The position numbers and the translations under genes are program-made. The notes below the pieces were generated by a model. It did no database searches. It worked only from the letters and a program-made list of their open reading frames with translations, and was not told the origin of the DNA. From positions 15,789 to 79,788 of the forward strand of contig JAEDDP010000003.1 in the NCBI GenBank assembly GCA_016297965.1: DNA of 64,000 nt. The letters are read 5' to 3'. The stretch comes from Alphaproteobacteria bacterium. Lineage in GTDB: Bacteria; Pseudomonadota; Alphaproteobacteria; Rs-D84; CACZYB01. Shown piece after piece: positions 6,944 through 56,231 of this stretch (positions are counted from its first letter, which is position 1; every line of letters starts with the position of its first letter).

Positions 6944-6945
6944 TT

Positions 6946-7389: not shown

Positions 7390-7399
7390 GGAATAAAAA

Positions 7400-10764: not shown

Positions 10765-12813
10765 ATGGGTAAAAATCCTATTCTTTCATCGTTGTATAAC
10801 AAGCTTCCGGCGGGAACTCCGGCTGGGTTTCAAATGGTATCACAATTTACCCCAAGTGGCGACCAGCCATCGGCAATAAAGGAGCTTGTAAAGGGAATAA
10901 ACGAAGGTAAAAAGGATCAGGTATTACTTGGTATTACCGGTTCGGGTAAAACATTTACAATGGCAAATGTTATTCAACAATGTCAACGTCCAACCCTTAT
11001 AATGGCACCTAACAAAATTTTGGCGGCACAACTTTATCAGGAAATGTTGGAATTGTTTCCGAATAACCACGTTGAATACTTTGTTTCATACTATGACTAT
11101 TATCAACCGGAAGCATATATTCCAAAAACCGACACCTATATTGAAAAGGACAGTGCAATAAACGAACAAATTGACCGACTTCGTCATTCGGCGACAAGAT
11201 CCCTTTTGGAATATCGTGATGTTATTATTGTGGCTTCGGTATCGTGTATTTATGGTTTGGGTTCACCGGAGGCATACTCCTCTATGAGTTTGACATTAGA
11301 GGAAGGTCAGACAATACCACTTGATGAAGTACTTAAAACACTTACCTCTATGCAATATGAACGAAACGATATTGCACTTGACCGTGGAACATTCCGACTT
11401 CGCGGGGATACATTGGAAGTTTTTCCAGTCCATTTGGAGGATAAGGCGTGGCGGTATTCTTTTTTTGGGGATGAAATTGAAACGATTGCCGAATTTGATA
11501 CCCTTACTGGGAAAAGGATGCTTTCACTTCGGTCAACAACAATATATCCGTCAAGCCATTATGTAACACCGGGACCTGCCCTTTCAAATGCAATTGTTGG
11601 AATAAAGGAAGAACTTCGCGAACGGTTGGAATATTTTACAAAAAATCACCAACTTCTTGAAGAACAGAGGTTAAGGGAAAAGACCAATTTTGATATAGAG
11701 ATGTTGGAAACCACCGGATATTGTAAAAGCATTGAAAATTATTCAAGGTATTTGACCGGAAGACCGGCCGGCGCGCCACCACCAACTTTGTTTGAATACC
11801 TTCCGGATGATGCGTTAGTGTTTATTGATGAATCGCACGTTTCCGTTCCTCAAATTGGTGGTATGTATAATGGGGACCGTGCAAGAAAGACTACACTTGC
11901 CCAATATGGGTTCCGTCTTCCATCGTGTCTTGACAACCGACCATTAAAGTTTGCCGAATGGAATGAATTTAGGGGGCAAACGATATATATTTCCGCAACG
12001 CCGGGTGATTGGGAGCTTGAACAAACAGGTGGAAAATTTACGGAACAGCTTATCCGACCAACAGGACTTTTGGATCCAGAAATTGAGGTTCGTCCATTGG
12101 AAAATCAGGTGGATGACCTTATGCATGAATGCCGAAAGGTTGCCGCATCCGGCGGACGGGTACTTTGTACGACACTGACAAAGAAAATGGCGGAACAGCT
12201 TACCGATTATTTATCCGAATATGGAATAAAGGTTCGCTATCTTCATTCAGATATTGACACATTAGAACGTGTGGAAATTATTCGCGATTTGCGTATGGGA
12301 AAATTTGATGTGTTGGTTGGAATAAACCTTCTTCGTGAAGGATTGGATATTCCGGAATGTAAGCTTGTTGCCATACTTGATGCGGACAAGGAAGGTTTCC
12401 TTCGTTCGGAACGTTCGCTTATCCAAACAATTGGACGTGCCGCCCGAAATGCCGAAGGTCGGGTAATACTTTATGCCGATAAAATAACCGGTTCAATGAA
12501 GTATGCAATTGATGAAACAAACAGACGTAGGGCAAAACAAATTGCATATAATACGGCACACAATATAACACCAACAACCGTATCAAAAAAGATTGCGTCA
12601 AATATTGCAGATATGGATTATGTTGATATACAGGAAAATCCAACCGCAAACAGGAAAAAGTTCAAATTTAAATCTCCGGATGATATTCAAAAGATCATCA
12701 AAAAGAAGGAAAAGGAGATGTTGGAACTTGCAAACAACCTTGAATTTGAAAAGGCAACAGAGATACGTGATGAAATTAAGGAGCTTAAAAAACTTTCTCT
12801 TGAATTAGAGTAA
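10765..12813 (+). CDS. uvrB: Excinuclease ABC subunit B.
   Basis: Strong UvrB homology throughout ([14 protein letters not shown] Walker A, helicase motifs, C-terminal UVR domain [17 protein letters not shown]). The true start is the ATG at 10765 (MGKNPILSS...); the track's 10684 start is an upstream extension. Confidence 0.9.
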
Positions 12814-40357: not shown

Positions 40358-41560
40358 ATGAATAAAAAAAGAGTTGCCGTATTTTTTGGTGGAAAGTCAT
40401 TTGAACATGATGTAAGCATTTTGACCGGACTTCAAGTAATGCAGGTTTTGGATATAACAAAGTATGAACCAATACCTGTGTATGTTGATGTTGACGGGAA
40501 ATGGTGGACCGGAAAAGCTTTGCTTGATATGAAAAACTATCCAATAGATGAAAATATCAGGGCAACTCTTCATCATATTGCAATAAGTGTTGGTCGTGGT
40601 GATTTGACACCAAGGTTTGAAATATTAAATCCAAAAATGTTTGGAAAAAAGTTTATTGAATTTGATATTGCATTTTTTGCTTTTCACGGAAGTATGGGTG
40701 AAAACGGACCAATGCAGGGAGTTATGGAGGCATCAAATATTCCATACACCGGTGCCGATGTTTTGTCGTCCGCAATTTATATGAGTAAGACAGACACAAA
40801 GGCAATTTGCCGAAGCATTGGAATAAAGGTTCTTGATGAAATAGTGTTGAAAAAACCGAACATTAACGAATCTTTTGATGTAAAATCCCTTACAAAAGGA
40901 TTGAAAATAAACTTTCCTGTTTGTGTGAAACCGGCAAACCTTGGAAGTTCGGTTGGAGTATCAAAGGCGGTAAATGAGGATGAACTTCAAACATCAATAC
41001 TTCAAGTTTTCAAGCTTGATAATGAAGTGATTATTGAACCTTTTGTTGAAAACCTTAAAGAATACAATGTTGCCGTTATGAAAAATTTGGATGGGGAAAT
41101 AATTACATCCGTAATTGAGTCTCCGGTTGAAAAACACGAATTTTTGGATTTTAAGGACAAATATTTGGCAAGCGATGGTGCAAAAAAGACCGGTCCTGCA
41201 AAGCTTGCCGTTCCAACAGAAGGACTTCTTTCAATGGGACGTGAATATAATCCACAAATAACAGATGAAATGAAACATTTCATTGAAACTTCGGCAAAAA
41301 AGTTATTTGGATATATGGGAGCGACCGGTAATCCAAGAATTGATTTTTTGTGTAATTCAAAAACAAATGAGCTTTGGCTTAATGAAGTAAATCCAATTCC
41401 GGGGGCATTTGCATTTTACCTTTGGGAAAAATCGGAACACAAAATTAACTATGCAAAGCTTGTTGACATAATTATTCAAAATGGATTTAAAAATTTTGAT
41501 GCAAAAAATAAAAACATTGATTTGAAAACTGCATCATCAATAATTTTTAAAAAGAAATAA
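40358..41560 (+). CDS. ddl: D-alanine--D-alanine ligase family (ATP-grasp).
   Basis: VAVFFGGKSFEHDVSILTG N-terminus, ATP-grasp central domain, and a C-terminal NEVNPIPG motif. Confidence 0.7.
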   Translation: MNKKRVAVFFGGKSFEHDVSILTGLQVMQVLDITKYEPIPVYVDVDGKWWTGKALLDMKNYPIDENIRATLHHIAISVGRGDLTPRFEILNPKMFGKKFIEFDIAFFAFHGSMGENGPMQGVMEASNIPYTGADVLSSAIYMSKTDTKAICRSIGIKVLDEIVLKKPNINESFDVKSLTKGLKINFPVCVKPANLGSSVGVSKAVNEDELQTSILQVFKLDNEVIIEPFVENLKEYNVAVMKNLDGEIITSVIESPVEKHEFLDFKDKYLASDGAKKTGPAKLAVPTEGLLSMGREYNPQITDEMKHFIETSAKKLFGYMGATGNPRIDFLCNSKTNELWLNEVNPIPGAFAFYLWEKSEHKINYAKLVDIIIQNGFKNFDAKNKNIDLKTASSIIFKKK

Positions 41561-41564
41561 ATAA

Positions 41565-41590
41565 GGCCCCGTAAATGGGGCTTTTTTTTT
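41565..41590 (+). terminator. Rho-independent terminator after ddl (gcccc-gtaaat-ggggc + T9).
   Basis: GC stem followed by nine T. Also abuts the 3' end of the convergent murF-like gene. Confidence 0.6.
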
Positions 41591-43184
41591 AGATGTTTAT
41601 TTTCGCTTCAAACACATCGGGTAAATCGTTTTCATAAAGGACAACATCATTTGCCCGCATATTAAGATTTAACCATTCCTGCGCCTGTTTCAATGTATCA
41701 ACAAAGATAAGTTCTTGATTGTCCCGTTTACCATTTTTAAATGTATCGGTAAATGATTTTATCCGGTCGGGTACAACGGCAATTACTATATCACAGGTAT
41801 CAAGTGCGATTTCGGCAACTTCCCTGTGTTGTGCATCGTGTTGATTGCCAAGTTCAACCATCCCCGGTGTGATAAGTATTGCACGCCCTTTATTTTCCGC
41901 GGCCAAGGAATGTAATGTTTCAAGTGCCGATTTAAAGCCATCAACATTTGAATTGAAGGCATCATCAATTATGATTGCTCCGTTTAATTGCTTTTTTACC
42001 TCTAATCTGTGTTCGGTTTGTGGCAATGATTTAAGTGTTGCAATAATTGTATCAGGTGAAAGTCCAAGCTTTAATGCCATAATAAAGGCGAGTGATATAT
42101 TTTGTGCCTGATGTTTTCCAAATATAGGTGCTGTTATTTTGTATGTGTTTTTATTGTAATGTAAATTAAAGCTTAATCCATTAACAGATGTTGAAATGTC
42201 GGTTATATCAAAATCGGTACGGTCAGCCCTGTACTTTTTAATATACTTATAATCAACAAGTTTTGAATTTATAACATAAAAACCATTATTTTTTTTAACG
42301 GACTTTATCAAATCAAACTTTTCCTTTGCGATGGCATCCTTTGATTTAAAGTTTTCAAAGTGTGCCGAACCAATTGCCGTAAGGATACCAAATGTTGGTT
42401 CAATAAGGTTGCAAATCTTTCTTATCCGACCGGAACGGGATGTTCCAACCTCAACAATAAAATATTTATATTGTGGTTTAAGTTCTTCACGAATCACTTG
42501 GGTGATACCCATCAATGTATTTATGCTTCGTGCAGTTGTCATTGAAGTTGATACAGATGACAATATGTGATTAAGGATATTTTTTGTGCTGGTTTTTCCA
42601 AATGAACCGGTAATTCCAATTACAACCGGATTTATTTTTTGAAGCTTTGCCCGTGCCTGTGCAATATATCTACGACGAATAAAAAACTCTAATGGCGAAA
42701 GCAACAAATTTGCAATAATAAGTGTAAATGGAAGAAGTTGAATTACAAAAATCAAATATCCCATTATTTCACAAAAACAGTAAATATCCTTTGTATAAAG
42801 TTTATATGTATAATAAAAAAGTGATGAAGACATACAAATATCAATCACAAATGCAATTTGTAAAATTCGTTTTATACGCTTTGTTAAATCAAGCTTTTTT
42901 TTGGCGAAACTTTGTTTTGTTGGATTTGGGGTTATAAGGGCAAAGGTAATAAATGCCAATGAGGTAACGATAACATCCAATGGGTAAATTTTTGTACCGG
43001 TTGCAAATATGGTATATAGGAAAAATATCAATGACAAACGCTTATCAACCAATTGAAACTTATGAAAAATAAAATGAATAAATGATTTTGTTTGATAACG
43101 TTCCTGTTGAAAGAAAAGACTGTAAAACATAGTCCTTTTGTATGCAAAAAACATAAATGAAAGAAATGCACAAATTATATACAT
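41589..43184 (-). CDS. murF: Mur ligase, MurF-like (UDP-MurNAc-tripeptide--D-Ala-D-Ala ligase family), with an unusual ~190-aa N-terminal polytopic membrane region in place of the canonical N-terminal domain.
   Basis: NPVVIGITGSFGKTSTK (P-loop), TEHRLEV, and IIIDDAFNSNVDGFKSAL (the Mur ligase C-terminal DDxYNxN signature). The first ~190 aa contain 4-5 hydrophobic helices and no in-frame stop. Confidence 0.6.
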   Translation of the reverse strand: MYIICAFLSFMFFAYKRTMFYSLFFQQERYQTKSFIHFIFHKFQLVDKRLSLIFFLYTIFATGTKIYPLDVIVTSLAFITFALITPNPTKQSFAKKKLDLTKRIKRILQIAFVIDICMSSSLFYYTYKLYTKDIYCFCEIMGYLIFVIQLLPFTLIIANLLLSPLEFFIRRRYIAQARAKLQKINPVVIGITGSFGKTSTKNILNHILSSVSTSMTTARSINTLMGITQVIREELKPQYKYFIVEVGTSRSGRIRKICNLIEPTFGILTAIGSAHFENFKSKDAIAKEKFDLIKSVKKNNGFYVINSKLVDYKYIKKYRADRTDFDITDISTSVNGLSFNLHYNKNTYKITAPIFGKHQAQNISLAFIMALKLGLSPDTIIATLKSLPQTEHRLEVKKQLNGAIIIDDAFNSNVDGFKSALETLHSLAAENKGRAILITPGMVELGNQHDAQHREVAEIALDTCDIVIAVVPDRIKSFTDTFKNGKRDNQELIFVDTLKQAQEWLNLNMRANDVVLYENDLPDVFEAKINI

Positions 43185-43189: not shown

Positions 43190-43957
43190 TTAATCCTTTA
43201 TTGTATTTAAAATAATTGAGGCAACCTGATATTTCCCAGCGGAAAGAATAGAATTATGATCAAATGTTGGAAGAATATATAGGCGCGAATTTTTGATAAG
43301 TCTGTTATACTTTTTTCCAAAATATGCAGGTGTGGTTGTATCACCTTCCCCATAAATAAGTGTTGTTGGAACAGATACAGAGCGTGCAATATGACTTAAA
43401 TCTTCAAGCACAGTTTTTTTCAAAATTTCCCGCATTAGTGGAGTTGCATTTTTATAATCTGCACTGGCAAAACGAGCATAATATTTTCGGTAAAGGCTTG
43501 ATGTCATAACATCCCGACCAATAATTCGGTAAAAGGTACGAAGTCCCCTTGCACCAGTTAAAATAACTTCCCGTAAAAGCCTTTTATGCTTTTTAAGCCC
43601 AGCACCGGCAACAACGAAAATTCCGGAAATAAGCTGTGGGTAATATGCACCAAGGTATACCGCAATTCGTCCACCGAATGAATGACCGACAATATAAACC
43701 CTGTCATCACATGAAAACTTTGCACGAATAAAATCAACAATAATATCGGTATAATTGGAAACGGAAAGAACCTCCGTCGGCATATCACTTTGTCCGAACC
43801 CCGGTAAATCAATCAAATAACAATCGTATTCCCCAAGTTGTTCGGCAATAGGTTTAATATTCAATAAAGAATGCCCCCAACCGTGAAGAAGAACAAATTT
43901 TATATTTGATTGTTTTGTTCCGGCAATAAATTCGTAATGTAAATTTTTATATATCAT
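43190..43957 (-). CDS. Alpha/beta hydrolase fold protein.
   Basis: VLLHGWGHS and nucleophile elbow GHSFGG. Confidence 0.6.
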   Translation of the reverse strand: MIYKNLHYEFIAGTKQSNIKFVLLHGWGHSLLNIKPIAEQLGEYDCYLIDLPGFGQSDMPTEVLSVSNYTDIIVDFIRAKFSCDDRVYIVGHSFGGRIAVYLGAYYPQLISGIFVVAGAGLKKHKRLLREVILTGARGLRTFYRIIGRDVMTSSLYRKYYARFASADYKNATPLMREILKKTVLEDLSHIARSVSVPTTLIYGEGDTTTPAYFGKKYNRLIKNSRLYILPTFDHNSILSAGKYQVASIILNTIKD

Positions 43958-44021
43958 TTTTTACCTTTTATCCTTTGGATTATACATTATATGTAAAAAA
44001 AAGACAAAGGAAATCTTTGTC

Positions 44022-44166: not shown

Positions 44167-44376
44167 TTACTGTAAATCTATATCAATAATTGACATATTG
44201 AAGTCGTATGATGTTTCACCTTCGTCTTCGTCCTTGTAAAGAGTACCAATAAATTCTGTACCCATATAAACCTCAGCCATAGAGCTGTCGGAATTACTTA
44301 ATTTTAGTTTTATGTCTGGATTTTTAAATTTTAATTGAAGGTAGTTTGCAAGCTTTGCAAGTTCTTCATGATTCAT
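44167..44376 (-). CDS. DUF3126 family protein (alphaproteobacterial conserved small protein).
   Basis: MNHEELAKLANYLQLKFKNPDIKLK...AEVYMGTEFIGTLYKDEDEGETSYDFNM fits the DUF3126 pattern. Confidence 0.55.
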   Translation of the reverse strand: MNHEELAKLANYLQLKFKNPDIKLKLSNSDSSMAEVYMGTEFIGTLYKDEDEGETSYDFNMSIIDIDLQ

Positions 44377-44477
44377 AATAGTACTCCTTATCTGTTTATT
44401 ATGTTAAGCATTATAAAGGAATAATATAAAAACACAAATGAAAAAAACAGGCCCCAGAAAATGGAGCCTGAAAACCG

Positions 44478-44975
44478 TTAATTATCATAAACTTCTATTA
44501 ACGCGTTTATTTGTCCCTGATCGTAGTATTTATTGAATTTTGTACCTTGTTTAAATTTTTTTTCCTTTTTACCCTTCTTTTTATCAGTTATTTCCTTTGA
44601 TTTGATACTTCCATCAGCATAATAATTTATTACTGTAAATACATCGTCGGCCTTATTCTTTTTAAAGAAAGTTTTTACATTTTTACCGTCTGGGGTAACA
44701 ATTATTCCGTTCATTTGATCGCCGTTTTCATAGTATGAAACCATATTGTTGCCGGATTTCATAAAGCCGGTTATCTTGTCCCCTTCTAAATCACAATATG
44801 TGAAGTTGCCCTTTTTGGATTTATCGCAAATAACGGCATCTGTTTCATATTCGTATACTGTATACATAGGTGTTGGTTGCTTTGCATTATTTGTTTCTTT
44901 TTGTTTTGTTGATGTTGAAGAATTTGACATACTGCATGCGGAAAGCACACATAGTATTGGTAATAATTTTTTCAT
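44478..44975 (-). CDS. Lipoprotein with MORN-variant-like repeats (hypothetical).
   Basis: MKKLLPILCVLSACS lipobox from M at 44975, with repeated Y-x-NG/DG beta-hairpin-like units. Confidence 0.45.
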   Translation of the reverse strand: MKKLLPILCVLSACSMSNSSTSTKQKETNNAKQPTPMYTVYEYETDAVICDKSKKGNFTYCDLEGDKITGFMKSGNNMVSYYENGDQMNGIIVTPDGKNVKTFFKKNKADDVFTVINYYADGSIKSKEITDKKKGKKEKKFKQGTKFNKYYDQGQINALIEVYDN

Positions 44976-45039
44976 AATAGCCTCCTTTTTGGTTATAGAC
45001 ATATTATCAAGAAAGATTTACCAAATTTCAAATAGTATA

Positions 45040-45067
45040 AATCCCTAGGTTTTGAAGCCTAGGGATT
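45040..45067. repeat. Perfect 10-bp inverted repeat (aatccctagg ... cctagggatt) with an 8-nt loop, between two minus-strand genes; possible terminator or operator.
   Basis: Direct inspection. Lies downstream of the 45102..45449 gene on the minus strand. Confidence 0.4.
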
Positions 45068-45101
45068 AACCTTTGGATTGCCCCCAAAGTTATTTTTTTA
45101 C

Positions 45102-45449
45102 TTACGCTGTTTTTCTTACCTTTTCTGAAATATTAAGTTCACGGTCAAGAAGTATCATTTGTTCACGAGTATCTTCAAAGATAAACAACTTTATCTTGTC
45201 TGCAATATCTTTGTTGCTCATATCACGAGTGTTTTCAGCGAATGATTGTCTTTTGATTTGGAAAGAAGTGTATGCACCAAGAAGGTCGCTTCTGTCCAAT
45301 GATTCAATATTTCCGGCATTTCCCATTTTTATATTTTTTGCGATTGCATCTTTTAGGGAAATTGTTTCGCCAGATTTGTTTACCCAAACTGTTTCTTCAA
45401 GAATTGTATCAATAACGGTCATTAAAACTGTTTTATTTTTGCTCTCCAT
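45102..45449 (-). CDS. Hypothetical protein (115 aa).
   Basis: ORF track; charged, protein-like composition. The overlapping plus-strand ORF 45073..45507 is hydrophobic/low-complexity and judged spurious. Confidence 0.4.
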   Translation of the reverse strand: MESKNKTVLMTVIDTILEETVWVNKSGETISLKDAIAKNIKMGNAGNIESLDRSDLLGAYTSFQIKRQSFAENTRDMSNKDIADKIKLFIFEDTREQMILLDRELNISEKVRKTA

Positions 45450-45686: not shown

Positions 45687-46139
45687 ATGTCATTATTTTT
45701 GGGAACCATAGAAAATAAAGTTGATGCAAAGGGTCGTGTAAGCGTTCCGGCAGATTTTCGTATGGCAGTAAAAAATGATGATTTTCAAGGTGTTATTCTT
45801 TTTCATTCTTTTACAAATAAATGTATTGAAGGTTGCACAATGTCCCGTATGGAACAAATTTCAGAGGCAACCGACAATCTTGACCTTTTCAGTGAGCAAA
45901 CAGAAAGTTTAAGTTCACTTATATTTTCCGATGCAAGACAGCTTTCCTTTGATGTAACGGGACGAATTGTAATTCCATCCGATTTGTTGGAATTTGCCGG
46001 AATTGATGGAAATGCTTTGTTTGTTGGTCGGGGTAAAACATTCCAGATATGGAATGCCGATGAATTTAAGAAGGTTCAAGAGGAAGTAAGGGCAAATGCC
46101 GTTCGTAATCGCCCTTCTTTGTCATTCAAAAAGGATTAG
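45687..46139 (+). CDS. mraZ: Transcriptional regulator MraZ.
   Basis: MSLFLGTIENKVDAKGRVSVPADFR plus a duplicated MraZ repeat. First gene of the dcw cluster. Confidence 0.85.
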   Translation: MSLFLGTIENKVDAKGRVSVPADFRMAVKNDDFQGVILFHSFTNKCIEGCTMSRMEQISEATDNLDLFSEQTESLSSLIFSDARQLSFDVTGRIVIPSDLLEFAGIDGNALFVGRGKTFQIWNADEFKKVQEEVRANAVRNRPSLSFKKD

Positions 46140-47075
46140 TTGATGGGTGAAAATATTCCACATATTCCGGTTATGCTTTTACCTGTACTTCAAAACCTTA
46201 ATGTTCGTGAAGGTTGTGTTTATGTTGATGGAACGTTTGGAAATGGTGGATATACCGCCGGAATACTTCAAACACCGTGCACAAAAGTAATTGCCTTTGA
46301 CAGGGATGAAACTGTGCTTCCACGGGTTGCCGAATTTAAGGAAAAGTATGGAGACAGGTTCGTTTTTTTTCAGGAACGATTTTCACAAATTTTTCCAACG
46401 CTTAGCAAAAATAATATTGGACCGGTTGATGGATTGGTTTTGGATATTGGGGTGTCGTCTATGCAAATAGATACACCGGAACGTGGCTTTTCATTTCGTT
46501 TTGATGCTCCGCTTTCTATGGCGATGGGGAAAAATGATTTGGATGCAAGGGAAGTAATCAATAATCTGTCAGAGGAAAAACTTTCCGACATTTTTTATAA
46601 GTATGGCGAAGAACCAAGGTCGCGGGCAATTGCACGAAGAATTGTAAGTGCAAGGGGGAATAAGCCAATAATTACCACATTTGAATTGGTGGATATAATT
46701 AAAAATTTTGCCGGTGAATGGCAGGCACAAAAGATAATTCCACGAATTTTTCAATCACTTCGTATTTATGTAAATGACGAGCTTGGCGAACTTGAAACTG
46801 TGCTTGGAGGCAGTGAAAAAATACTTAAATCGTCGGGGCGACTTGTCGTTGTGGATTTTCATTCCCTTGAAGACAGGATTGTCAAAAATTTTATGAAGGA
46901 AAAGACGGGGGCAAAATCTGTATCGTCAAGATATGCACCACCGACAGATGAAAATAAAAATTTAAAATTATCCTTTAAAACAGTTCAAAAAAATGCTATA
47001 CTTCCAACAAGTGATGAAGTTGAACGAAACCCACGGGCAAGATCAGCAAAATTACGTGTTATTGAGAAGTTATAG
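46140..47075 (+). CDS. rsmH: 16S rRNA (cytosine1402-N4)-methyltransferase.
   Basis: YVDGTFGNGGYT SAM-binding motif and DLGVSS. Confidence 0.85.
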   Translation: MMGENIPHIPVMLLPVLQNLNVREGCVYVDGTFGNGGYTAGILQTPCTKVIAFDRDETVLPRVAEFKEKYGDRFVFFQERFSQIFPTLSKNNIGPVDGLVLDIGVSSMQIDTPERGFSFRFDAPLSMAMGKNDLDAREVINNLSEEKLSDIFYKYGEEPRSRAIARRIVSARGNKPIITTFELVDIIKNFAGEWQAQKIIPRIFQSLRIYVNDELGELETVLGGSEKILKSSGRLVVVDFHSLEDRIVKNFMKEKTGAKSVSSRYAPPTDENKNLKLSFKTVQKNAILPTSDEVERNPRARSAKLRVIEKL

Positions 47076-47081
47076 GCAGAA

Positions 47082-47384
47082 ATGATAAAAAAATATAAAC
47101 ATCTTTTTTTTCCGATTTTAGTGGTTGTTGCTGTGCTTTCATCTGGGCTGGGCTTTTTCCTTCAATTTAAAATAAACAAATTTGACAGGGAGATTGCAAA
47201 CCTTCAATCCGAAATAAAAAAAACGGATGTTGAAATAAAGGTTTTGAAAACGGAAATTTCCCATCTTACATCAATTCAACGGGTGCGGGAAATTGCAAAT
47301 CGTTATCTTCCACAATACAAAAACATTACACAAAAAGATTTTATAAACCTTATGGATATTCCGGTTAACCCAGATTTTGAGTAG
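47082..47384 (+). CDS. ftsL: Cell division protein FtsL-like (TM + coiled coil).
   Basis: Single TM segment then a coiled coil. Positioned between rsmH and ftsI. Confidence 0.55.
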   Translation: MIKKYKHLFFPILVVVAVLSSGLGFFLQFKINKFDREIANLQSEIKKTDVEIKVLKTEISHLTSIQRVREIANRYLPQYKNITQKDFINLMDIPVNPDFE

Positions 47385-49071
47385 TTTTATGAAAAAGTTT
47401 TTTGATAAATTTTCCGATAATGAAGGCAATGAATTTTTTGAATTAAATTCATTCCGCGATGATATTCCGGTTGAACTTTTGTTAAAAAATAAAACGAAAA
47501 ATGAAACCGAACGCCGTATTATTATTATAAAAAAGTATCTTCTTCCTTTGTTGTTTATTCTTTTAACCATTACCCTTTTTTGGCGGGTTGATTTTTTCAG
47601 TGGTACAAACAAGGAAAAAACGGAAACCGTAAATAAATTTCATCGCCCAGATATTGTTGATAGGAACGGCGAAACAATTGCAACGAATCTTCCGACGTGG
47701 GATTTATATGTTGAACCATATAATGTTGTTGATGCCGAAAAATCAGCAAAGATGTTGGTTAAAGTTTTGCCATACTTAAAATACAATGACGTATTGCAAA
47801 AGATGAAATCACCACGAAAGTTTTTATACATCGTAAGGGATATAACCCCAGCGGAACAGAAAAAAATAATCCTTATCGGTGAACCGGGATTTGGTTTTGA
47901 ACAAAATGAAGGTCGTGTTCATACTCAGGGAAGTCTTTTCAGTCATATTATTGGCACCGTTGACATTGATAATAATGGTGTAAGTGGTATTGAAAAATAT
48001 ATTGATAGTAAAGGATTATCAAAGTCAACAAAACCAATACAACTTTCCGTTGATTTGTATATCCAAGATGCAATACATCAAAACCTTTCTTTTGCAATGA
48101 AAGAATATGGTGCAAAAAGTGCCGCCGGTATAGTAATGGATGTAAAAACAGGTGAAATTTTGGGTATGGTTTCACTTCCTGATTTCAAAATCAATGAATA
48201 TAAAAATACTGTACTGAATACACTTTATAACAACCACATTACGTACGATGTGTATGAAATGGGATCGGTGATGAAGATTTTTAATACTGCACTTGCCATT
48301 GAAAATAACTATCCGAACGACAAGTTTTTTAATGTATTAAAACCATTTAAAATTGGAAGTCATCCTGTAAAGGATTCCCATCCGAAAAAGGCCCTACTTA
48401 ATATGGCGGAAGGGTTTATTCATTCATCAAATATTGTAATGGCAAATATTGCACAGGATTTGGGAATTGAAAAACAAAAGGAATTTTTTGAAAAAATAAA
48501 AATGTTTAAAAAGGTAAATTTTGAACTTCCGGAACGGGGGGAACCTTTGCTTCCAAAAGTTTGGGATGAATTTACCAGTGCAAGTATAGGTTATGGTTAT
48601 TCCATTTCACCAACTATGCTTCATATAATATCCGCGGTAAATGGAATCATAAATGATGGTATGTATATAGAACCAACCATAATGAAAAAGGATACAAATT
48701 CAGTTTTGAAATCATATCAGGTTGTAAGTCAGAAAACATCAGAAGCGATGCGAAAACTTATGCGATTGGTGGTAACAGATGGTACGGGATATATGGCAAA
48801 GTTAAAAGACATCGCCGTTGGAGGAAAAACCGGAACATCGTATAAAAATAAAAATGGAAAATATGATAAAAATAAAATTCGGACATTTTTTATTTCCATA
48901 TTCCCAGTTGACAGTCCAAAGTACATAATGCTTGTTATGTTGGATGAGGCGGTAACAAAAACCGGATGCAACAGCTCGGCTTGTACGACTGTACCTGTAT
49001 CAACACAAATTATAAAGGAAATAGGTTCAATATTAAACCTTGACCTTACCCTTAAAATTAAAAAAAATTAA
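47377..49071 (+). CDS. ftsI: Peptidoglycan D,D-transpeptidase FtsI (PBP3).
   Basis: SxxK (GSVMK), SxN (HSSN) and KTGT motifs, with an N-terminal TM anchor. Confidence 0.8.
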   Translation: MSSFMKKFFDKFSDNEGNEFFELNSFRDDIPVELLLKNKTKNETERRIIIIKKYLLPLLFILLTITLFWRVDFFSGTNKEKTETVNKFHRPDIVDRNGETIATNLPTWDLYVEPYNVVDAEKSAKMLVKVLPYLKYNDVLQKMKSPRKFLYIVRDITPAEQKKIILIGEPGFGFEQNEGRVHTQGSLFSHIIGTVDIDNNGVSGIEKYIDSKGLSKSTKPIQLSVDLYIQDAIHQNLSFAMKEYGAKSAAGIVMDVKTGEILGMVSLPDFKINEYKNTVLNTLYNNHITYDVYEMGSVMKIFNTALAIENNYPNDKFFNVLKPFKIGSHPVKDSHPKKALLNMAEGFIHSSNIVMANIAQDLGIEKQKEFFEKIKMFKKVNFELPERGEPLLPKVWDEFTSASIGYGYSISPTMLHIISAVNGIINDGMYIEPTIMKKDTNSVLKSYQVVSQKTSEAMRKLMRLVVTDGTGYMAKLKDIAVGGKTGTSYKNKNGKYDKNKIRTFFISIFPVDSPKYIMLVMLDEAVTKTGCNSSACTTVPVSTQIIKEIGSILNLDLTLKIKKN

Positions 49072-49142
49072 AAAGTACTTAATTATAAAATATATTTGTG
49101 CTATAATATGTGTGATATTTATATAAATGAGGACTTTATAAA

Positions 49143-50216
49143 ATGTTTTACAGTTTAACTTCTAATTTGGATGGATTTTTTAATCTTTTTAGATATATCA
49201 CATTTAGGACCGGTGGGGCATTGCTTACATCACTTTTTATCTATCTTATTTTTGGTGGGAAATTTATTCATTTTGTTAAAAATAAATTCGCACAACCGAT
49301 AAGAAAGGAAGGTCCACAATCTCACCTTAAAAAACAGGGAACACCAACAATGGGTGGTGTATTGATGCTTATATCCATATTTGTTTCGGCAATGCTTTGG
49401 TGCAACCTTAATAATGGGTATGTGTGGATTGTATTGTTTACAATGTTTTCATTCGGACTTATTGGCTTTATTGATGATTATTTTAAGGTGGTTCATGGTA
49501 ATGCATACAGGGGACTTTCCGCAAAGTTAAGATTGCTTTTGCAATTTATAATAAGCGGACTTGTTTGTTATGGTATATACAAACTTATGCCAAATGAATT
49601 TAAGACAACTATCACTATGCCATTTTTGAAAAACATACTTTGGGATTTAGGAATAATTTATTTCGTGTTTGTGGCATTTGTAATTGTTGGAACCGCAAAT
49701 TCGGTAAATTTAACGGATGGTATTGATGGTCTTGCAAGTATGACAAGCATAACTTCGTTTATCGTTTTCTTGCTTGTTTCATATTTGATTGGACGTGCGG
49801 ATTATTCGCTTTATTTGTATCTTCCATACGTTCCAGGTGCCGGTGAAGTAACCGTGCTTATCGGTTCAATTATTGGTGCGATTTTGGGCTTTTTATGGTT
49901 TAATGCATATCCGGCAAAAATATTTATGGGAGATGTTGGTTCACTTGCCATTGGTGCCGGTTTGGGTGTAGTTAGTGTTATAACAAAAAATGAATTTTTA
50001 CTTCTTATTTGTGGGGCAATTTTTGTTGCCGAAGCTCTTTCGGTTATGATACAAATTGCATCGTTTAAAATAAGGGGAAAAAGATTTTTCAGGATGGCTC
50101 CGATACACCATCATTTTGAATTGGGTGGATGGAGCGAGCAAACCGTGGTAATGAGATTTTGGATTATATCTGTAATCCTTGCTTTGGTTGCCCTATCATC
50201 TCTTAAAATCAGATAG
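49143..50216 (+). CDS. mraY: Phospho-N-acetylmuramoyl-pentapeptide transferase.
   Basis: Polytopic protein with conserved NSVNLTDGIDGLA and MGDVGS motifs. Confidence 0.9.
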   Translation: MFYSLTSNLDGFFNLFRYITFRTGGALLTSLFIYLIFGGKFIHFVKNKFAQPIRKEGPQSHLKKQGTPTMGGVLMLISIFVSAMLWCNLNNGYVWIVLFTMFSFGLIGFIDDYFKVVHGNAYRGLSAKLRLLLQFIISGLVCYGIYKLMPNEFKTTITMPFLKNILWDLGIIYFVFVAFVIVGTANSVNLTDGIDGLASMTSITSFIVFLLVSYLIGRADYSLYLYLPYVPGAGEVTVLIGSIIGAILGFLWFNAYPAKIFMGDVGSLAIGAGLGVVSVITKNEFLLLICGAIFVAEALSVMIQIASFKIRGKRFFRMAPIHHHFELGGWSEQTVVMRFWIISVILALVALSSLKIR

Positions 50217-50230
50217 TAAAAGGAATAAAA

Positions 50231-51649
50231 ATGATAAATAATTTGCTTAATAAAACTGTGGCTATATTGGGCCTTGGTAAGACAGGTATGGCCGTTGCCA
50301 GAGAACTTAAATGTCGTGGCGTTCACGTTATTGGATGGGATGAAAAAGAAGAATTAAGGGCTGAGGCACAAAAACTTCAAGTTGTGGTTCAGGATTTACG
50401 TTTCGTTGACTTTTCAAAGGTGAAACTTTTGATAATAAGTCCGGGAATTCCGCATACCTACCCTGCTCCACATCCTGTGGCACAGCTTGCAAAGGACAAT
50501 GGTGTTCCAATAATTTCTGATATTGAATTATTTATTTCAACGTACAAGGATGCAAAATATATTGGTATTACCGGCACAAATGGAAAGTCAACAACGACCG
50601 CCCTCATATACCATATATTAAAGGAAAATGGTGTGCCATGTGCAATTGGTGGAAATTTTGGTATTCCAGTTTTTGATTTGCCAATACTTGGAAGTGATGG
50701 TTATTATGTCCTTGAAATGTCAAGTTATCAAATTGATATTACTCCATCGTTGGATTTTGATATTGCCGCACTTTTAAATATTACTCCGGACCATTTGTCC
50801 CGTCATAATGGAATGGATGGATATGTGGCGGTGAAAAAGCAAATCTTTACACGAAAGACAAAAAAGGATGTTGTGAATGTTGTTGCGGTTGATGACAACT
50901 ATACAAAGAAGATATTCAAGGAAATTTGTGAAGAACAAACAAAATCCAAAAATATTCCAGTATCATTTTCAAAAAAATTGGACGGTGGATATTATGTAAA
51001 TTCAAAGGGTGTTTTGATTGATAATACAAAGAATGAGAAAAAAGAAATTTTGGATTTATCGGAACTTCAAAACCTTCGTGGAAAACATAACTGGCAAAAT
51101 ATTGCCGTTGCATTTGCGGTGGCTAAAAAAACAGGACTTTCAACCGCAAAAATTATAGATGCGATAAAAAACTTTGCCACACTTGAACACAGGATTGAAA
51201 ATGTTGGTACATTTGCCGGTGTTCAATTTATTGATGATTCAAAGGCAACCAATGCCGAATCCGTAAAATATGCCATAGACTCAATGAAGGATATTTACTG
51301 GATTATTGGCGGACGACAAAAAGAAGGTGGTATTTCAATTTTGGAACCACAACTTGGGGATGGAAATATAAAGCGAGTATTCACAATTGGTGAATGTGAA
51401 AAGGACTTTTATAATACAACAAAAAAGGTTCTTCCATCATACAAATGTCATAAGCTTGAAAAGGCTGTGTTTAAGGCATTTAAGCTTGCCATAAAAGATT
51501 TAAAAAAGGGCAAGGTTGAAAAACCGGTTATACTTTTATCACCGGCGACTGCGTCATTTGACCAATATAAATCTTTTGAAGCAAGGGGCGACCATTTCAA
51601 ACAGCTTTATAAAGACATAGTTGCAAAGTATCAAAAAAAGTTTGGATAA
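50231..51649 (+). CDS. murD: UDP-N-acetylmuramoylalanine--D-glutamate ligase.
   Basis: GITGTNGKSTTT P-loop and HRIE motif; Mur ligase domains. Confidence 0.85.
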   Translation: MINNLLNKTVAILGLGKTGMAVARELKCRGVHVIGWDEKEELRAEAQKLQVVVQDLRFVDFSKVKLLIISPGIPHTYPAPHPVAQLAKDNGVPIISDIELFISTYKDAKYIGITGTNGKSTTTALIYHILKENGVPCAIGGNFGIPVFDLPILGSDGYYVLEMSSYQIDITPSLDFDIAALLNITPDHLSRHNGMDGYVAVKKQIFTRKTKKDVVNVVAVDDNYTKKIFKEICEEQTKSKNIPVSFSKKLDGGYYVNSKGVLIDNTKNEKKEILDLSELQNLRGKHNWQNIAVAFAVAKKTGLSTAKIIDAIKNFATLEHRIENVGTFAGVQFIDDSKATNAESVKYAIDSMKDIYWIIGGRQKEGGISILEPQLGDGNIKRVFTIGECEKDFYNTTKKVLPSYKCHKLEKAVFKAFKLAIKDLKKGKVEKPVILLSPATASFDQYKSFEARGDHFKQLYKDIVAKYQKKFG

Positions 51650-51654
51650 GCCAA

Positions 51655-52785
51655 ATGTTTATGAAACGAACCGACAATAATTTGCTTACAAAGTGGTGGC
51701 TTGGGGTAGATAAGGTTGTTTTATTTGCCGTACTTGGGTTTATAGTGTTCGGTGCATTGATGGTTTGTTCAACCGGACCGTATGCCGCGCAAAGGGCAAG
51801 ATTGGATGAGCTTTTTTATATAAAAAAAATGCTTGTATACATTCCGGTTGGTATCGTTTCATTGTTCGTATTATCGTTTATGAAAATAAAGTGGTTAAGG
51901 TATGGAGCATGGACTTTATTCCTTATCCTTCTTCCATCATTATTTGTGGCATTGGCATTTCCGGAAACCAAGGGGGCAAGGCGTTGGATTACACTTCCAG
52001 GGGTATTTAAAATTCAGCCGTCCGAATTTTTTAAGCCTATATTTGCCCTTGTCGTTGCGATGATACTTTCGCGAATAAAGGAACTTCACAACAGGGAAGT
52101 TCCGGTATGGCAAAATAAACGTGAACGGAACTATATTCTTTTGCTTCTTGGTATATTTGGTCTTGTTATACTCGCCCTATCCCTTCAAAAAGATTTGGGA
52201 ATGACACTTACGTATACAGTTATCTTTTTTGCCGAAGTTTTTGTTGCAGGACTTTCGTGGAAATGGATTTTGGTACTTTTTGGATTGGGTATTACGGGAC
52301 TTGCCTGTGCATTCAAATTTATGCCCCACGTTGTACGGCGACTTACGGCATTTCACGAAGGTTCGTACCAACTTGATATGAGCCTTAAAGCGATTGGCGA
52401 GTCGGGTATACTTTTTGGTGGGTCAGGAAACAACATAAAAAAGCTTATCCCCGATGTTCACACCGATTTTATTTTTGCGGGAATTGTTGAAAATTTTGGA
52501 CCAGTTATTGCCACACTTATAGTTGCATCATTTTTTAGCGTAATCCTACATATTTTGGGAGATGTGTATCAAAAAAATAATAAATTTATTGTATATAGTG
52601 TTGTTGGTATTGTGTCGTATTTGACATTCCAAATAACAATTAACCTTTCATCAACACTTGGAATAATTCCAACAAAGGGTATGACATTGCCGTTTATTTC
52701 CTATGGTGGGTCGTCCTTTGTTTCATCTTGCATTGCAATAGGAATTATTTTATCATTGCTTCAAGATCAAAATTTACGGAGATGA
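51655..52785 (+). CDS. ftsW: Peptidoglycan glycosyltransferase FtsW (SEDS family).
   Basis: Ten TM segments and SEDS conserved regions (PSEF.K, TDFIFA). Confidence 0.85.
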   Translation: MFMKRTDNNLLTKWWLGVDKVVLFAVLGFIVFGALMVCSTGPYAAQRARLDELFYIKKMLVYIPVGIVSLFVLSFMKIKWLRYGAWTLFLILLPSLFVALAFPETKGARRWITLPGVFKIQPSEFFKPIFALVVAMILSRIKELHNREVPVWQNKRERNYILLLLGIFGLVILALSLQKDLGMTLTYTVIFFAEVFVAGLSWKWILVLFGLGITGLACAFKFMPHVVRRLTAFHEGSYQLDMSLKAIGESGILFGGSGNNIKKLIPDVHTDFIFAGIVENFGPVIATLIVASFFSVILHILGDVYQKNNKFIVYSVVGIVSYLTFQITINLSSTLGIIPTKGMTLPFISYGGSSFVSSCIAIGIILSLLQDQNLRR

Positions 52786-52790
52786 TTATA

Positions 52791-53882
52791 ATGAAAAAAA
52801 ATAATAAAAGAATAGTGATTGCTGCTGGTGGAACCGGTGGACATCTGTTTCCCGCTTCATCAATAAAAACTGCCCTTGAAAAAAAGGGATATAAGGTATT
52901 TTTGATTACGGATAAAAGGGGCAAAAGATTTGCCAACAAATTTGAAAATATATCCGTTATTGTTGGTGGCGGTTGGAGTGGGGAAAGCTTCTTTTACCGT
53001 GCAAGAAGTCTTTGCAAACTTGCCGTTGGATTTATGCAAACACTTTTTTATATGTTTAAAATCCGTCCGGTTGCCGTGATTGGGATGGGTGGTTATATTT
53101 CGGTTCCGGTTGTGTTGTGGGGAAAGCTTCTTTTGAAAAAGACTTTCGTACATAATGCCGACTCTATACTTGGTAATGCAAATATATTGCTTTCCAAATT
53201 TGCGGATGTGACAATGGTTTCATTCAATGATACAAAGAAAATTCCGGCACGGGCAAATGTTGTATTTACCGGACTTCCACTTCGTCAGGATGTAAAGGAT
53301 GTTGCAAATACGCCGTACAATTCACCGGAAAAAAGTAGCAAGATTATTGTTGTTGTTATGGGGGGATCCCAGGGGGCAAAAATCTTTGGTGATGTTGTAT
53401 CAAGGGCATTTGCAATGTTTGATAGTAAGACAAAAAAGAAGTTATTTATATATCAACAGGTTGTTGAGGAAGATATAGGGGAAATTTCCGAATTTTACAA
53501 AAATGAAGGAATTGAGGCCGAAATAAAATCATTTTTCAATAACCCAGCGGAATTATTAGCATTGGCAAACATATTTATTGGGCGTGCAGGTGCATCTACC
53601 GTATTGGAAGTTGGAACGGTTGGAAGACCGTCAATTTTTATACCAATTATGCATAAGGACAGGCAACAATTCATAAATGCCGAACAAATAACAAATGTTG
53701 GTGGTGGGGAAATCTTACCACAACCAGAGTTTTCGGCAAAAAATTTATATAAAATCCTTGAAAAAATGATAAAAACGCCGAATTTACTTGAAAATATGGC
53801 AAAAAAAGCTAAAATTTTCAAAATTGATAATGACGCAAGCAAAAATATTGCCGATTTAGTGGACAATATCCTTTGCAAATAA
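52791..53882 (+). CDS. murG: UDP-GlcNAc--undecaprenyl-PP-MurNAc-pentapeptide GlcNAc transferase.
   Basis: IVIAAGGTGGHLFPA N-terminal motif and GT28 fold. Start at the ATG at 52791, just after the ftsW stop. Confidence 0.85.
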   Translation: MKKNNKRIVIAAGGTGGHLFPASSIKTALEKKGYKVFLITDKRGKRFANKFENISVIVGGGWSGESFFYRARSLCKLAVGFMQTLFYMFKIRPVAVIGMGGYISVPVVLWGKLLLKKTFVHNADSILGNANILLSKFADVTMVSFNDTKKIPARANVVFTGLPLRQDVKDVANTPYNSPEKSSKIIVVVMGGSQGAKIFGDVVSRAFAMFDSKTKKKLFIYQQVVEEDIGEISEFYKNEGIEAEIKSFFNNPAELLALANIFIGRAGASTVLEVGTVGRPSIFIPIMHKDRQQFINAEQITNVGGGEILPQPEFSAKNLYKILEKMIKTPNLLENMAKKAKIFKIDNDASKNIADLVDNILCK

Positions 53883-53894
53883 AGAAGGTGTGTA

Positions 53895-55301
53895 ATGCAA
53901 AATATTGATTTAAATTCATTGCCAAAATCAACTGTGTTTCATTTTATTGGGGTTGATGGTATCGGAATGAGTTCTATTGCCGAAGTTTTGTGTAAGCTTG
54001 GCTTTGAAGTGCAGGGTTCAAATGATGTTGATGGTGAAAATATGCAACATCTTAAAACACTTGGGGCAACCGTGTTTGTTGGACATAAGGCATCAAATGT
54101 TAATGGTGCGGATTTTGTTGTATTTTCGTCCGCAATTCCAGAAGACAATGTTGAAATGGTTGAAGCAAAAAAGCTTGGGATTCCACTTGTTGAGCGGGCA
54201 ACTATGCTTCAATACTTATTTACAATGAAAAAATCCGTGGCGATTACCGGAACACACGGAAAGACCACTACTACATCGTTCGTTGGAACTATGCTTGATG
54301 TTGCCGGATTTGATGCAACAATCATTGATGGTGGAATTATGAATAAGTATAATTCACATAACAAGGTTGGAAATGGTGAATTTGTTGTGGCGGAAGCATG
54401 TGAAGCATTCGGAAATATAAAGCATTATACAACCGATATTGCCGTTATAACAAATGTTGATGCCGAACATATGGAATATTACAAAACGTTTGAAAATTTG
54501 GAAAACTATTTCCGTGAATTTATTGGTCGTGTGCCAGCTGATGGATTGGTTGTTGCATGCGCGGATCATCCTGTTGCATTAAAGCTTGCCAATGAAGCAA
54601 GGGGTAAAAAAAAGATTCTTACCTACGGATATTCGGATGGAGCGGATGTGATCGCATCCAACGTTCATTTTGAAACTGATGGTTCACATTTTGATGTAAA
54701 GTTTGCAAACGGTGATGAAATAAAAAATCTTCATATTCCATTGTTTGGAAGGCACAATGTTCTTAACTCACTTGTTGCAATTGCAATTGCAAAGCATTTG
54801 AATGTTGGTGATGATAAGATATGTGAGGCATTGGCTCAATTTACCGGAACAAAGCACAGGTTTACACGTGTTGCAGATGTGGATGGTATTACAATTTTTG
54901 ATGATTATGGTCATCATCCAAAGGAAATTGAAATGACCCTTGCGATGGCACGAACTATTGCAAAGGATAATAAAATATTTGCAATTTTTGAACCACATAG
55001 GTATTCGCGACTTACAAACTTATTTGATGGTTTTTTGAAATGTTTTAAGGATGCGGATTATGTAATTTGTATGCCAGTTTATGGTGCCGGAGAATCAGAG
55101 GGGGGATTTAAAACTCATTCTGATTTTTATGATGCTCTTCAAGCTTCTGGATTTAAAAATTCATTTAAAATCAATGACTTTAATGAAGTCCCAGAGATTA
55201 TATTGTCAAACGCAAAATCAGGTGATATAATTGTTTCACTTGGTGCGGGAAGTATAAAACATTATATTTATGACTTGCCAAATTTGATTAGAAAAAAATA
55301 G
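53895..55301 (+). CDS. murC: UDP-N-acetylmuramate--L-alanine ligase.
   Basis: HFIGVDGIGMS N-terminus and ITGTHGKTTTTS P-loop; Mur ligase domains. Confidence 0.85.
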   Translation: MQNIDLNSLPKSTVFHFIGVDGIGMSSIAEVLCKLGFEVQGSNDVDGENMQHLKTLGATVFVGHKASNVNGADFVVFSSAIPEDNVEMVEAKKLGIPLVERATMLQYLFTMKKSVAITGTHGKTTTTSFVGTMLDVAGFDATIIDGGIMNKYNSHNKVGNGEFVVAEACEAFGNIKHYTTDIAVITNVDAEHMEYYKTFENLENYFREFIGRVPADGLVVACADHPVALKLANEARGKKKILTYGYSDGADVIASNVHFETDGSHFDVKFANGDEIKNLHIPLFGRHNVLNSLVAIAIAKHLNVGDDKICEALAQFTGTKHRFTRVADVDGITIFDDYGHHPKEIEMTLAMARTIAKDNKIFAIFEPHRYSRLTNLFDGFLKCFKDADYVICMPVYGAGESEGGFKTHSDFYDALQASGFKNSFKINDFNEVPEIILSNAKSGDIIVSLGAGSIKHYIYDLPNLIRKK

Positions 55302-55319
55302 GTTATTGAAAGAACGACT

Positions 55320-56231
55320 ATGAACGATTTACCAAAAGTCAAGGGTGATTTATTTGAAAATTATGAAATTGCAAACCTTACCAGATTCAAAACTGGTGGT
55401 GTGGCGGAGGTTTATTTTTCACCAAGGGATACCGATGATTTATCAAACTTTTTGAAAAAATCTCCAAAGGATATGCCAATACATATAATTGGTTTTGGTT
55501 CAAACATCCTTATCCGTGATGGTGTCCTTAATGGTATTGTTATTCGTCTTCAAAATGACAATTTTTCACGTATTGAAAAGTTGGATGATGGTTCATTTAG
55601 GTGTGGTGCGTTTGCTTCGTGTGTTGCAATTTCAAAATTCGCCGCCGAAAATGATGTTGCCGGTATGGAATTTTTGTTTGGTATTCCCGGAACTATTGGT
55701 GGGGCAATACTTACAAATGCTGGATGTTTCGGTCGTGAGGTAAAGGATATAATCGTTTCAGTTGAAGCGGTTGATAAGCTTACTGGAAAATCAAAAACTT
55801 TTATGCTTGATGAATGTGGTTTTTCGTACAGGAAGTGTGATATTTCCGACGAATGGGTTTTCACATCTGTTATAATAAAGGGAAAGCCAGGTAAAAAAGA
55901 AGAAATCCTTAAAACTATGGATGAAATAAAGACAAAGAAGGATTCATCACAGCCAACATATACAAAGACATCGGGTTCAACATTCAAAAATCCAAATTCT
56001 GAAAATCCAGCATGGAAGTTGATAAAGGATTCCGGATGTCAGGGAATGAAACTTGGCGGTGCAATTGTTTCACCAAAGCATGCAAACTTTATTGTGAATG
56101 AAAATAATGCGACATCCGCAGATATTGAAGATTTGGCGGAAAAGGTTCGCTTGGTTGTTTATGAAAAGTTTGGCATAATGCTTGAATATGAAATAAAAAT
56201 TATTGGTTCAAGAAAGCTTGAAAATCCATAA
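55320..56231 (+). CDS. murB: UDP-N-acetylenolpyruvoylglucosamine reductase.
   Basis: FAD-binding PCMH domain (GFGSNIL) and C-terminal MurB domain. Confidence 0.85.
   Translation: MNDLPKVKGDLFENYEIANLTRFKTGGVAEVYFSPRDTDDLSNFLKKSPKDMPIHIIGFGSNILIRDGVLNGIVIRLQNDNFSRIEKLDDGSFRCGAFASCVAISKFAAENDVAGMEFLFGIPGTIGGAILTNAGCFGREVKDIIVSVEAVDKLTGKSKTFMLDECGFSYRKCDISDEWVFTSVIIKGKPGKKEEILKTMDEIKTKKDSSQPTYTKTSGSTFKNPNSENPAWKLIKDSGCQGMKLGGAIVSPKHANFIVNENNATSADIEDLAEKVRLVVYEKFGIMLEYEIKIIGSRKLENP

Follow-up and report, generated by a model that had tools for sequence, protein, structure and literature searches.

A MurF-type ligase with a predicted membrane domain, encoded with a hydrolase partner in an alphaproteobacterium

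Can a Mur ligase that has membrane helices in place of its substrate-binding domain still be the MurF of its organism? MurF is an essential antibiotic target, and in the textbook picture it is a soluble enzyme of three domains, the first of which is the UDP-binding part in the solved structures (UDP, uridine diphosphate). The question is raised by a gene on the alphaproteobacterial contig JAEDDP010000003.1, within the stretch of 64,000 nucleotides (nt) that we analysed, here called the window; the rest of the genome lies outside this view. The gene encodes a MurF-type ligase of 531 amino acids (aa) that begins with a predicted membrane domain, and it lies directly downstream of a gene for a hydrolase. 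We conclude, at a probability of roughly 0.7, that it encodes a membrane-anchored MurF, made together with its hydrolase partner, which works on the inner side of the membrane and ligates the product of D-alanine–D-alanine ligase (Ddl) to the tripeptide precursor.

The ligase and its N-terminal domain

The ligase was called MurF-like in a preliminary description made from the sequence, and profiles, solved structures and predicted fold all uphold this. Pfam assigns residues 191–369 to Mur_ligase_M (PF08245, E = 1.4e-28) and residues 392–516 to Mur_ligase_C (PF02875, E = 2.1e-12), while residues 1–190 have no Pfam match even at E ≤ 1. The NCBIfam murF model TIGR01143 matches with E = 1.5e-64 and 218.5 bits over profile positions 63–402 of 418, far ahead of the competing models for MurC (E = 1.6e-18), MurE (E = 3e-17) and MurD (E = 4.4e-15), all of which score 67 bits or less. 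By sequence the closest solved relative is S. pneumoniae MurF (2AM1, E = 1e-32), with query residues 177–470 aligned to residues 92–387 of the chain. An AlphaFold2 (AF2) model of the full-length ligase was built with an alignment of 71 family sequences, and its top Foldseek matches are all MurF (A. baumannii, T. maritima, E. coli and P. aeruginosa), with E values down to 2.6e-21 over ~370 columns. When MurF, MurE and the CapB/PgsB family are compared, MurF is thus the closest; no PgsB/CapB model is among the 22 NCBIfam matches of the ligase or among its Pfam matches. PgsB/CapB, FolC, cyanophycin synthetase and MurT were each considered as the true family and rejected, since the matches to MurF models and structures are better by tens of orders of magnitude.

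The P-loop GITGSFGKTSTK and the HRLE and DDAFNSN motifs are all present in the ligase. In the 71-sequence alignment residues G192, S193, G195, K196, T197 and S198 of the P-loop (GSFGKTST) are invariant, and so are E244, H274 and K288. In the C-terminal domain the MurF-type motifs include invariant R392, D407, N410 and N412, together with G440, G445 and H448, the last of these closing the conserved GMVELG...H448 element. Judged by these residues the ATP-binding central domain and the dipeptide-binding C-terminal domain look to be of MurF type and catalytically intact. The fold and motifs of these two domains are those of canonical MurF (E. coli 1GG4, S. pneumoniae 2AM1, A. baumannii 4QF5 and P. 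aeruginosa 4CVM), which supplies the best matches, though with an identity of only 20–31% in the shared part. The N-terminal part is where the two differ. Canonical MurF has the soluble UDP-binding domain 1, whereas the window ligase has a five-helix membrane domain; domain 1 has no counterpart in it, and alignments to the solved MurFs begin at about chain residue 92. A tblastn search against plasmids matched only canonical MurFs, covering residues ~174–517, and none with the N-terminal domain.

What stands in the place of domain 1? The preliminary description had proposed a polytopic membrane region for the first ~190 residues, and this holds, with five predicted helices. The hydropathy profile averaged over 78 members of the family has five hydrophobic segments, at residues ~1–15, 51–65, 68–83, 109–126 and 139–160. 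The presumed cytoplasmic segments 16–50, 84–108 and 161–185 contain 7, 8 and 6 lysine plus arginine residues, respectively, against 1 and 2 in the two short presumed periplasmic loops, and the family means repeat this distribution. The positive-inside pattern fits a topology in which the N terminus is outside and the C terminus inside, placing the ligase domains in the cytoplasm. The full-length AF2 model has a mean predicted local distance difference test score (pLDDT) of 93.7 and a predicted template modelling score of 0.88, and the membrane domain modelled alone has a pLDDT of 95.8. The model has helices at residues 2–26, 31–42, 47–63, 66–83, 101–130 and 136–183, the last of which continues unbroken into the first strand of the ligase domain.

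The membrane domain is also strongly conserved. Seven of its residues are invariant in the 71 sequences (F12, R16, Q25, Q26, D46, T100 and P163) and a further eight are conserved to 90% or more (Y29, F34, K94, K95, R102, R105, P151 and E165); P87 is invariant in a smaller set of 20 sequences only. Most of the conserved polar residues are found where the protein is predicted to face the cytoplasm, in two loops and at the inner end of the fifth transmembrane helix. The basic loops, Q25-Q26-x-x-Y29 and K94-K95...T100-x-R102-x-x-R105, may take over the binding of the nucleotide diphosphate, or the docking of a partner such as the hydrolase or MraY.

Might the N-terminal 190 codons instead be a mis-extension, with the true start near the P-loop? 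All that speaks for this is the general point that chance can produce long open frames, and everything else goes the other way. The 120 best homologues, at 37–98% identity, are ~490–560 aa long save for a few that are truncated, and most cover 95–100% of the query; open reading frames (ORFs) from 77 genome loci have alignments mostly beginning at query residues 1–25; and homologues down to ~30% identity, from more than 10 phyla, include the extension. To this may be added the invariant and near-invariant residues and the confidence of the model of the isolated domain, a Shine-Dalgarno sequence 8 nt before the annotated ATG, and a frame that runs through the extension without a stop in AT-rich DNA (about 33–36% GC). 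A mis-called start is refuted by the conservation of the extension, and the idea can for practical purposes be set aside. The earlier suggestion that the long frame is real coding is therefore sustained by full-length homologues and invariant residues; the orthologues carry the conserved extension, rather than starting near residue 170 below an unconserved upstream region.

The hydrolase partner and the distribution of the module

How general is this architecture? A profile of the N-terminal domain alone, used in an exhaustive hidden Markov model search, found 1,685 representatives of clusters at 50% identity. Among the 150 of these that were listed, the domain is always N-terminal, in proteins of ~500–600 aa or in shorter ones that are probably truncated. 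The same domain used as a query in a word-indexed protein collection returned only 15 fragments. A scan that took one genome per species gave at least 589 relatives, of which the best 80 loci were analysed. These include Alphaproteobacteria (Labrys okinawensis, Blastochloris sulfoviridis, Kordiimonas and Micavibrio), Acidobacteriota, Bdellovibrionota, Chlamydiia, Cyanobacteria, Obscuribacterales, Poribacteria, Bacteroidales (Muribaculaceae), Clostridia, Chloroflexota, Omnitrophota and others, with more than 10 phyla overall. The preliminary description of such a protein as atypical goes somewhat too far, since it belongs to a large family found in many phyla, and a MurF with transmembrane domains had already been reported in H. 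pylori.

The ligase gene rarely travels alone. By our own clustering of the ORFs, 74 of the 80 loci have a homologue of the hydrolase as the next gene upstream, in the same orientation; two of the six exceptions are cut by the end of the contig. In 64 of the 80 a homologue of the long Ddl is no more than 6 kb away, and it is usually the next gene downstream, again in the same orientation. The near-obligatory hydrolase sets the membrane MurF apart from canonical MurF. In the window the TAA stop codon of the hydrolase gene lies 5 nt before the ATG of the ligase gene, and the Shine-Dalgarno sequence of the latter (AAGGA) is inside the 3′ end of the former; because of this close junction the two genes appear to be translationally coupled, in a two-gene operon.

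The hydrolase has the Abhydrolase_1 domain of Pfam (E = 9e-24). Its best NCBIfam model is that of the EstV family lipases (NF058580), which is named after the H. pylori enzyme, yet the match of 112.3 bits is far under the curated cutoff of 300 bits. The same model is the best one for all of 19 partners tested from diverse phyla, with E = 7e-46 at best, and by these matches the partner hydrolases are related to the EstV family without being equivalogs. No close solved structure was found in the PDB, the top match scoring 47 bits. In 72 partner sequences the catalytic triad of S93 (the nucleophile), D206 and H234 is invariant, and H25-G26-W27 and S165-x-D167-Y168 are invariant or nearly so. These residues argue for a working serine hydrolase rather than a degenerate passenger, and the invariant triad taken with the near-obligatory linkage suggests that it works with the membrane MurF. 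As to the reaction, its fold and its best matches (EstV, BioH-type esterases and S33 aminopeptidases) are compatible with an esterase as well as with a peptidase, whose substrate may be a precursor or the dipeptide, and favour neither.

In several lineages the module is found where a canonical murF would be expected. In five loci of Poribacteria the gene order is rsmH-ftsL-ftsI-murE-[hydrolase, membrane MurF, ddl]-mraY-murD-ftsW-murG-murC, and the trio occupies the exact slot of murF. This gives indirect genomic support to the view that the protein has MurF catalysis. Five Micavibrio- or Bdellovibrio-like loci have the order ftsI-murE-(152–190-aa ORF)-mraY-murD-ftsW-murG-murC-murB, then the hydrolase-MurF pair inverted, and then ddl-ftsQ-ftsA-ftsZ, with the long Ddl at the canonical position of ddl (murB-ddl-ftsQ) in the Micavibrio-like loci. 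A census of the Mur ligases in the 80 loci found no canonical murF after murE in any of the 10 loci in which murE is visible, and only one canonical MurF altogether, in L013.

The window has a comparable arrangement. Its dcw cluster is unusually reduced and consists of mraZ, rsmH, a small ORF, ftsI, mraY, murD, ftsW, murG, murC and murB; neither the ORFs nor the NCBIfam matches reveal a murE, murF or ddl inside it, and ftsI is followed directly by mraY. The same ftsI-mraY junction is found in the closest named relative, an uncultured gut alphaproteobacterium whose ligase is 58% identical (L001). A phmmer search of the window ORFs recovered only three Mur ligases, namely the membrane MurF, MurD and MurC. 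With murE and murF both missing from the cluster, the membrane MurF is the only candidate for MurF in view. It had been described as detached from the dcw cluster, and it does stand outside the canonical murF slot; but no more than ~2.5 kb separate it from mraZ, with which the cluster begins and from which it is transcribed divergently, and that cluster is itself without murE and murF.

One locus has a different composition. In L013, from a metagenome-assembled genome of Bdellovibrionales, a run of genes on one strand (4437–11551) may form an operon. Its products are a tandem double Ddl of 810 aa, a canonical MurF of 470 aa, a D-alanyl-D-alanine dipeptidase of the M15 (VanX) type, an EstV-like hydrolase and a membrane MurF. 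The cluster resembles a vancomycin-resistance cluster. ORFs that group with this dipeptidase in our clustering are also seen beside the module in two further loci, L005 (Labrys okinawensis) and L023 (Obscuribacterales).

Such an arrangement brings up another role for the membrane MurF, that of an accessory paralogue. With the esterase and Ddl it could serve a pathway that is alternative or used only under certain conditions, in an organism that has a canonical MurF gene at another locus. The pathway might involve a different dipeptide or a depsipeptide, proofreading or salvage of precursors, or another polymer. The canonical MurF, tandem Ddl and dipeptidase beside the module in L013, and the ORFs related to the dipeptidase beside it in the two further loci, speak for this, and the patchy phyletic distribution of the family and the unseen remainder of the genome are also compatible with it. 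On the other hand, none of the 10 loci in which the murF slot can be seen has a canonical murF there, the Poribacterial module fills that very slot, and the Ddl of the module takes the canonical ddl position in the Micavibrio-like loci. Moreover the MurF of H. pylori, with its transmembrane domains, is reported to be essential (PMC9507126, PMC9448923). We therefore consider an accessory role improbable, and less likely for those lineages that have a dcw cluster without murF, the window included. The membrane MurF is most likely the housekeeping MurF of the organism.

The ORF of 152–190 aa that lies between murE and mraY in the Micavibrio- and Bdellovibrio-like loci looks conserved among them (L006:19363–19821, L011:9474–9932, L015:19433–19903, L016:19836–20408 and L074:20437–20901, all on the minus strand), with a common ...VPDV..PGD...F... 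motif and no Pfam match. It was considered as a detached MurF domain 1 and rejected, as Pfam gave no match and, by eye and with no comparison run, the motifs of domain 1 could not be recognized.

Surroundings of the gene in the window

The features of the locus are collected in Table 1. The Ddl gene is convergent with the gene of the membrane MurF, and its product has both the N- and C-terminal Pfam domains (Dala_Dala_lig_N and Dala_Dala_lig_C). It scores 242.1 bits with TIGR01205, against a curated cutoff of 245.65 bits, and its PDB matches include DdlA (3i12, E = 4.7e-43) and H. pylori Ddl (2pvp, 127 bits). At 400 aa it is of the long form, the median length beside the module being ~403 aa across the family, and relative to Salmonella DdlA it has an insertion, visible as gaps of ~20 residues around residues 279–300. 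The H. pylori Ddl is shorter (367 residues in the 2PVP chain), so that the long form is not common to the Helicobacter module. Between the two genes is a hairpin, found on both strands, that looks like a bidirectional intrinsic terminator shared by ddl and murF.

Table 1. Features of the window around the gene for the membrane MurF
Feature	Position (nt)	Strand	Basis
DdlA-type D-alanine–D-alanine ligase, 400 aa, convergent with murF	40358–41560	+	Pfam, TIGR01205, PDB
GC-rich hairpin between an A-run and a T-run, AAGGCCCCGTAAATGGGGCTTTTTTTTT	41563–41584	.	Terminator scan, found on both strands
Membrane-anchored MurF-type ligase (predicted), 531 aa, ATG start	41589–43184	-	ORF, Pfam, NCBIfam, PDB, Foldseek, AF2
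Five-helix membrane domain of the ligase (predicted), residues 1–185	~42630–43184	-	Hydropathy, AF2, conservation
EstV-like alpha/beta-hydrolase, 255 aa, directly upstream of the ligase gene	43190–43957	-	Pfam, NCBIfam, partner alignment
Candidate sigma-70-like promoter, TTGTCT-17-TATAAT, upstream of the hydrolase-murF pair	43979–44007	-	Consensus scan, 10/12 matches; consensus match only
DUF3126 gene (69 aa), 174-aa ORF and 115-aa ORF	44167–45449	-	
dcw cluster: mraZ, rsmH, small ORF, ftsI, mraY, murD, ftsW, murG, murC, murB	45687–56231	+	ORFs, NCBIfam
ftsW ORF, within the dcw cluster	51655–52785	+	
murG ORF (TTG start), within the dcw cluster	52728–53882	+	NCBIfam

Three small genes separate the hydrolase-murF pair from mraZ. 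One belongs to the DUF3126 family; the 174-aa ORF has an N terminus resembling a lipoprotein signal (MKKLLPILCVLSAC), and for the 115-aa ORF no family match was recorded. The same arrangement is present on the only other contig with an identical ligase (L081, from the Logan run SRR12268562).

Within the dcw cluster the ORFs of ftsW and murG overlap by 58 nt; since the NCBIfam match of MurG starts at residue 22, the true start of murG is probably downstream of the first TTG. After murB comes a convergent murJ, and then bamD. The annotated ORFs of the window, which reach to 58630, do not include ddl-ftsQ-ftsA-ftsZ; the division genes, like murE, must have another place in the genome. No GatD-like gene was recognized among the annotated neighbours of the ligase in the window.

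Acceptor, known relatives and meaning

How might such an enzyme work? In the reading that we prefer, the adjacent DdlA-type ligase would supply the dipeptide to the membrane-anchored MurF, which would add the D-alanyl-D-alanine to UDP-N-acetylmuramic acid (UDP-MurNAc)-tripeptide. The conserved five-helix domain of 185 aa would stand in for the UDP-binding domain 1 at the inner membrane, and anchoring there may put the last cytoplasmic step of precursor synthesis beside MraY. That the acceptor remains the UDP-linked tripeptide is taken as an assumption.

A number of points weigh against this reading. The absence of domain 1 removes the part that binds UDP in the solved MurFs, and the score of the ligase falls short of the curated murF cutoff (288.6 bits); for these two reasons UDP-MurNAc-tripeptide can only be assumed to be the substrate. 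A canonical murF may be present elsewhere in the genome, beyond the 64-kb window, and the large genomes of free-living organisms that have the module (the 7-Mb genome of Labrys okinawensis, and Blastochloris) probably keep a canonical murF as well. Indeed the canonical enzyme encoded two genes from the module in L013 shows that both types can coexist. Finally, we found no biochemistry on members of the membrane MurF family in the literature.

Could the acceptor be embedded in the membrane? A ligase acting on a lipid-linked substrate had been raised as an alternative in the preliminary description. The acceptor might be undecaprenyl-PP-MurNAc-tripeptide (PP, pyrophosphate), that is a tripeptide form of lipid I or II, with the five-helix domain binding the lipid carrier. 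In favour of this, domain 1 is wholly missing, and the membrane domain has conserved residues, polar and basic, on its cytoplasmic side and within the fifth transmembrane helix (Q149, P151, N158, P163 and E165), which go beyond the needs of a mere anchor. There is also a precedent in MurT, a Mur ligase homologue without domain 1 that acts at the membrane on lipid II. Yet the likeness of the window ligase to MurT of the MurT/GatD lipid II amidotransferase (S. aureus 6GS2 and 7Q8E) hardly extends beyond the shared lack of that domain. The match is very weak in sequence and fold (E ~1e-3, against 1e-32 for MurF; Foldseek TM score 0.36), and MurT has a C-terminal DUF1727 domain, which Pfam does not find in the window ligase, a GatD partner and no transmembrane helices. 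No computed result points specifically to a lipid substrate, and the module replaces murF in standard dcw clusters in which the order of murE and mraY is kept. Furthermore, the H. pylori enzyme is treated as the standard final cytoplasmic one (PMC9507126). A lipid-linked acceptor is thus still less probable, in our estimation, than an accessory role, and the UDP-linked precursor is preferred.

The arrangement has a known counterpart in the Campylobacterota. In H. pylori we take MurF, EstV and Ddl (ddlA) to be HP0740, HP0739 and HP0738, which presumably places EstV between ddlA and murF. The H. pylori MurF is reported to have four N-terminal transmembrane domains (PMC9448923, citing Blair et al. 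2018). The architecture of transmembrane helices followed by a MurF ligase is therefore that of the window protein, for which five helices are predicted as against the four reported. EstV is an H. pylori carboxylesterase characterized on short-chain esters (PMC3741291, citing Ruiz et al. 2007). The C. jejuni neighbourhood described by Frirdich et al. has Cj0795c as MurF, Cj0798c as Ddl, and Cj0796c, an alpha/beta-hydrolase-fold protein that is possibly essential and for which a role in peptidoglycan biosynthesis was suggested (PMC5530802); this is the hydrolase-murF-ddl neighbourhood of the window. No member of the Campylobacterota is among the best 80 loci of the genome scan, and it is the shared architecture and synteny that suggest that the N-terminal domains of the H. 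pylori and C. jejuni MurFs are homologous to that of the window family.

A membrane MurF of the H. pylori type, with hydrolase and Ddl neighbours, is thus already known, and the window gene is a further member. In the literature searched we found no mention of how large the family is and how many phyla it spans, of the motifs that are invariant in its membrane domain, of a hydrolase partner that is nearly always present and has a predicted intact catalytic site, or of the replacement of murF within its slot in the Poribacteria. A cell-wall specialist versed in the Helicobacter literature would not be surprised by the gene, but it is still a reasonable lead.

A more far-reaching proposal can be made, which we put forward very tentatively and think unlikely to hold in full. 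The five-helix domain and the hydrolase would together define a membrane-associated version of the last 'cytoplasmic' step of precursor synthesis, spread over more than 10 phyla, in which the acceptor is lipid-linked or presented at the membrane, or the product is handed directly to MraY; the hydrolase would act on the precursor or the dipeptide, and might be essential.

Our analysis indicates that the MurF with a membrane domain is not a Helicobacter oddity but a large family, with 1,685 representatives and loci in more than 10 phyla. In several lineages it seems to take the place of canonical MurF, and it is accompanied by a serine hydrolase that has a possibly essential counterpart in C. 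jejuni. Three questions follow, namely how a UDP substrate is bound without domain 1, what reaction the hydrolase performs, and whether anchoring couples MurF to MraY. There is also a consequence for the annotation of genomes, in that a dcw cluster without murF need not imply that peptidoglycan synthesis has been lost.

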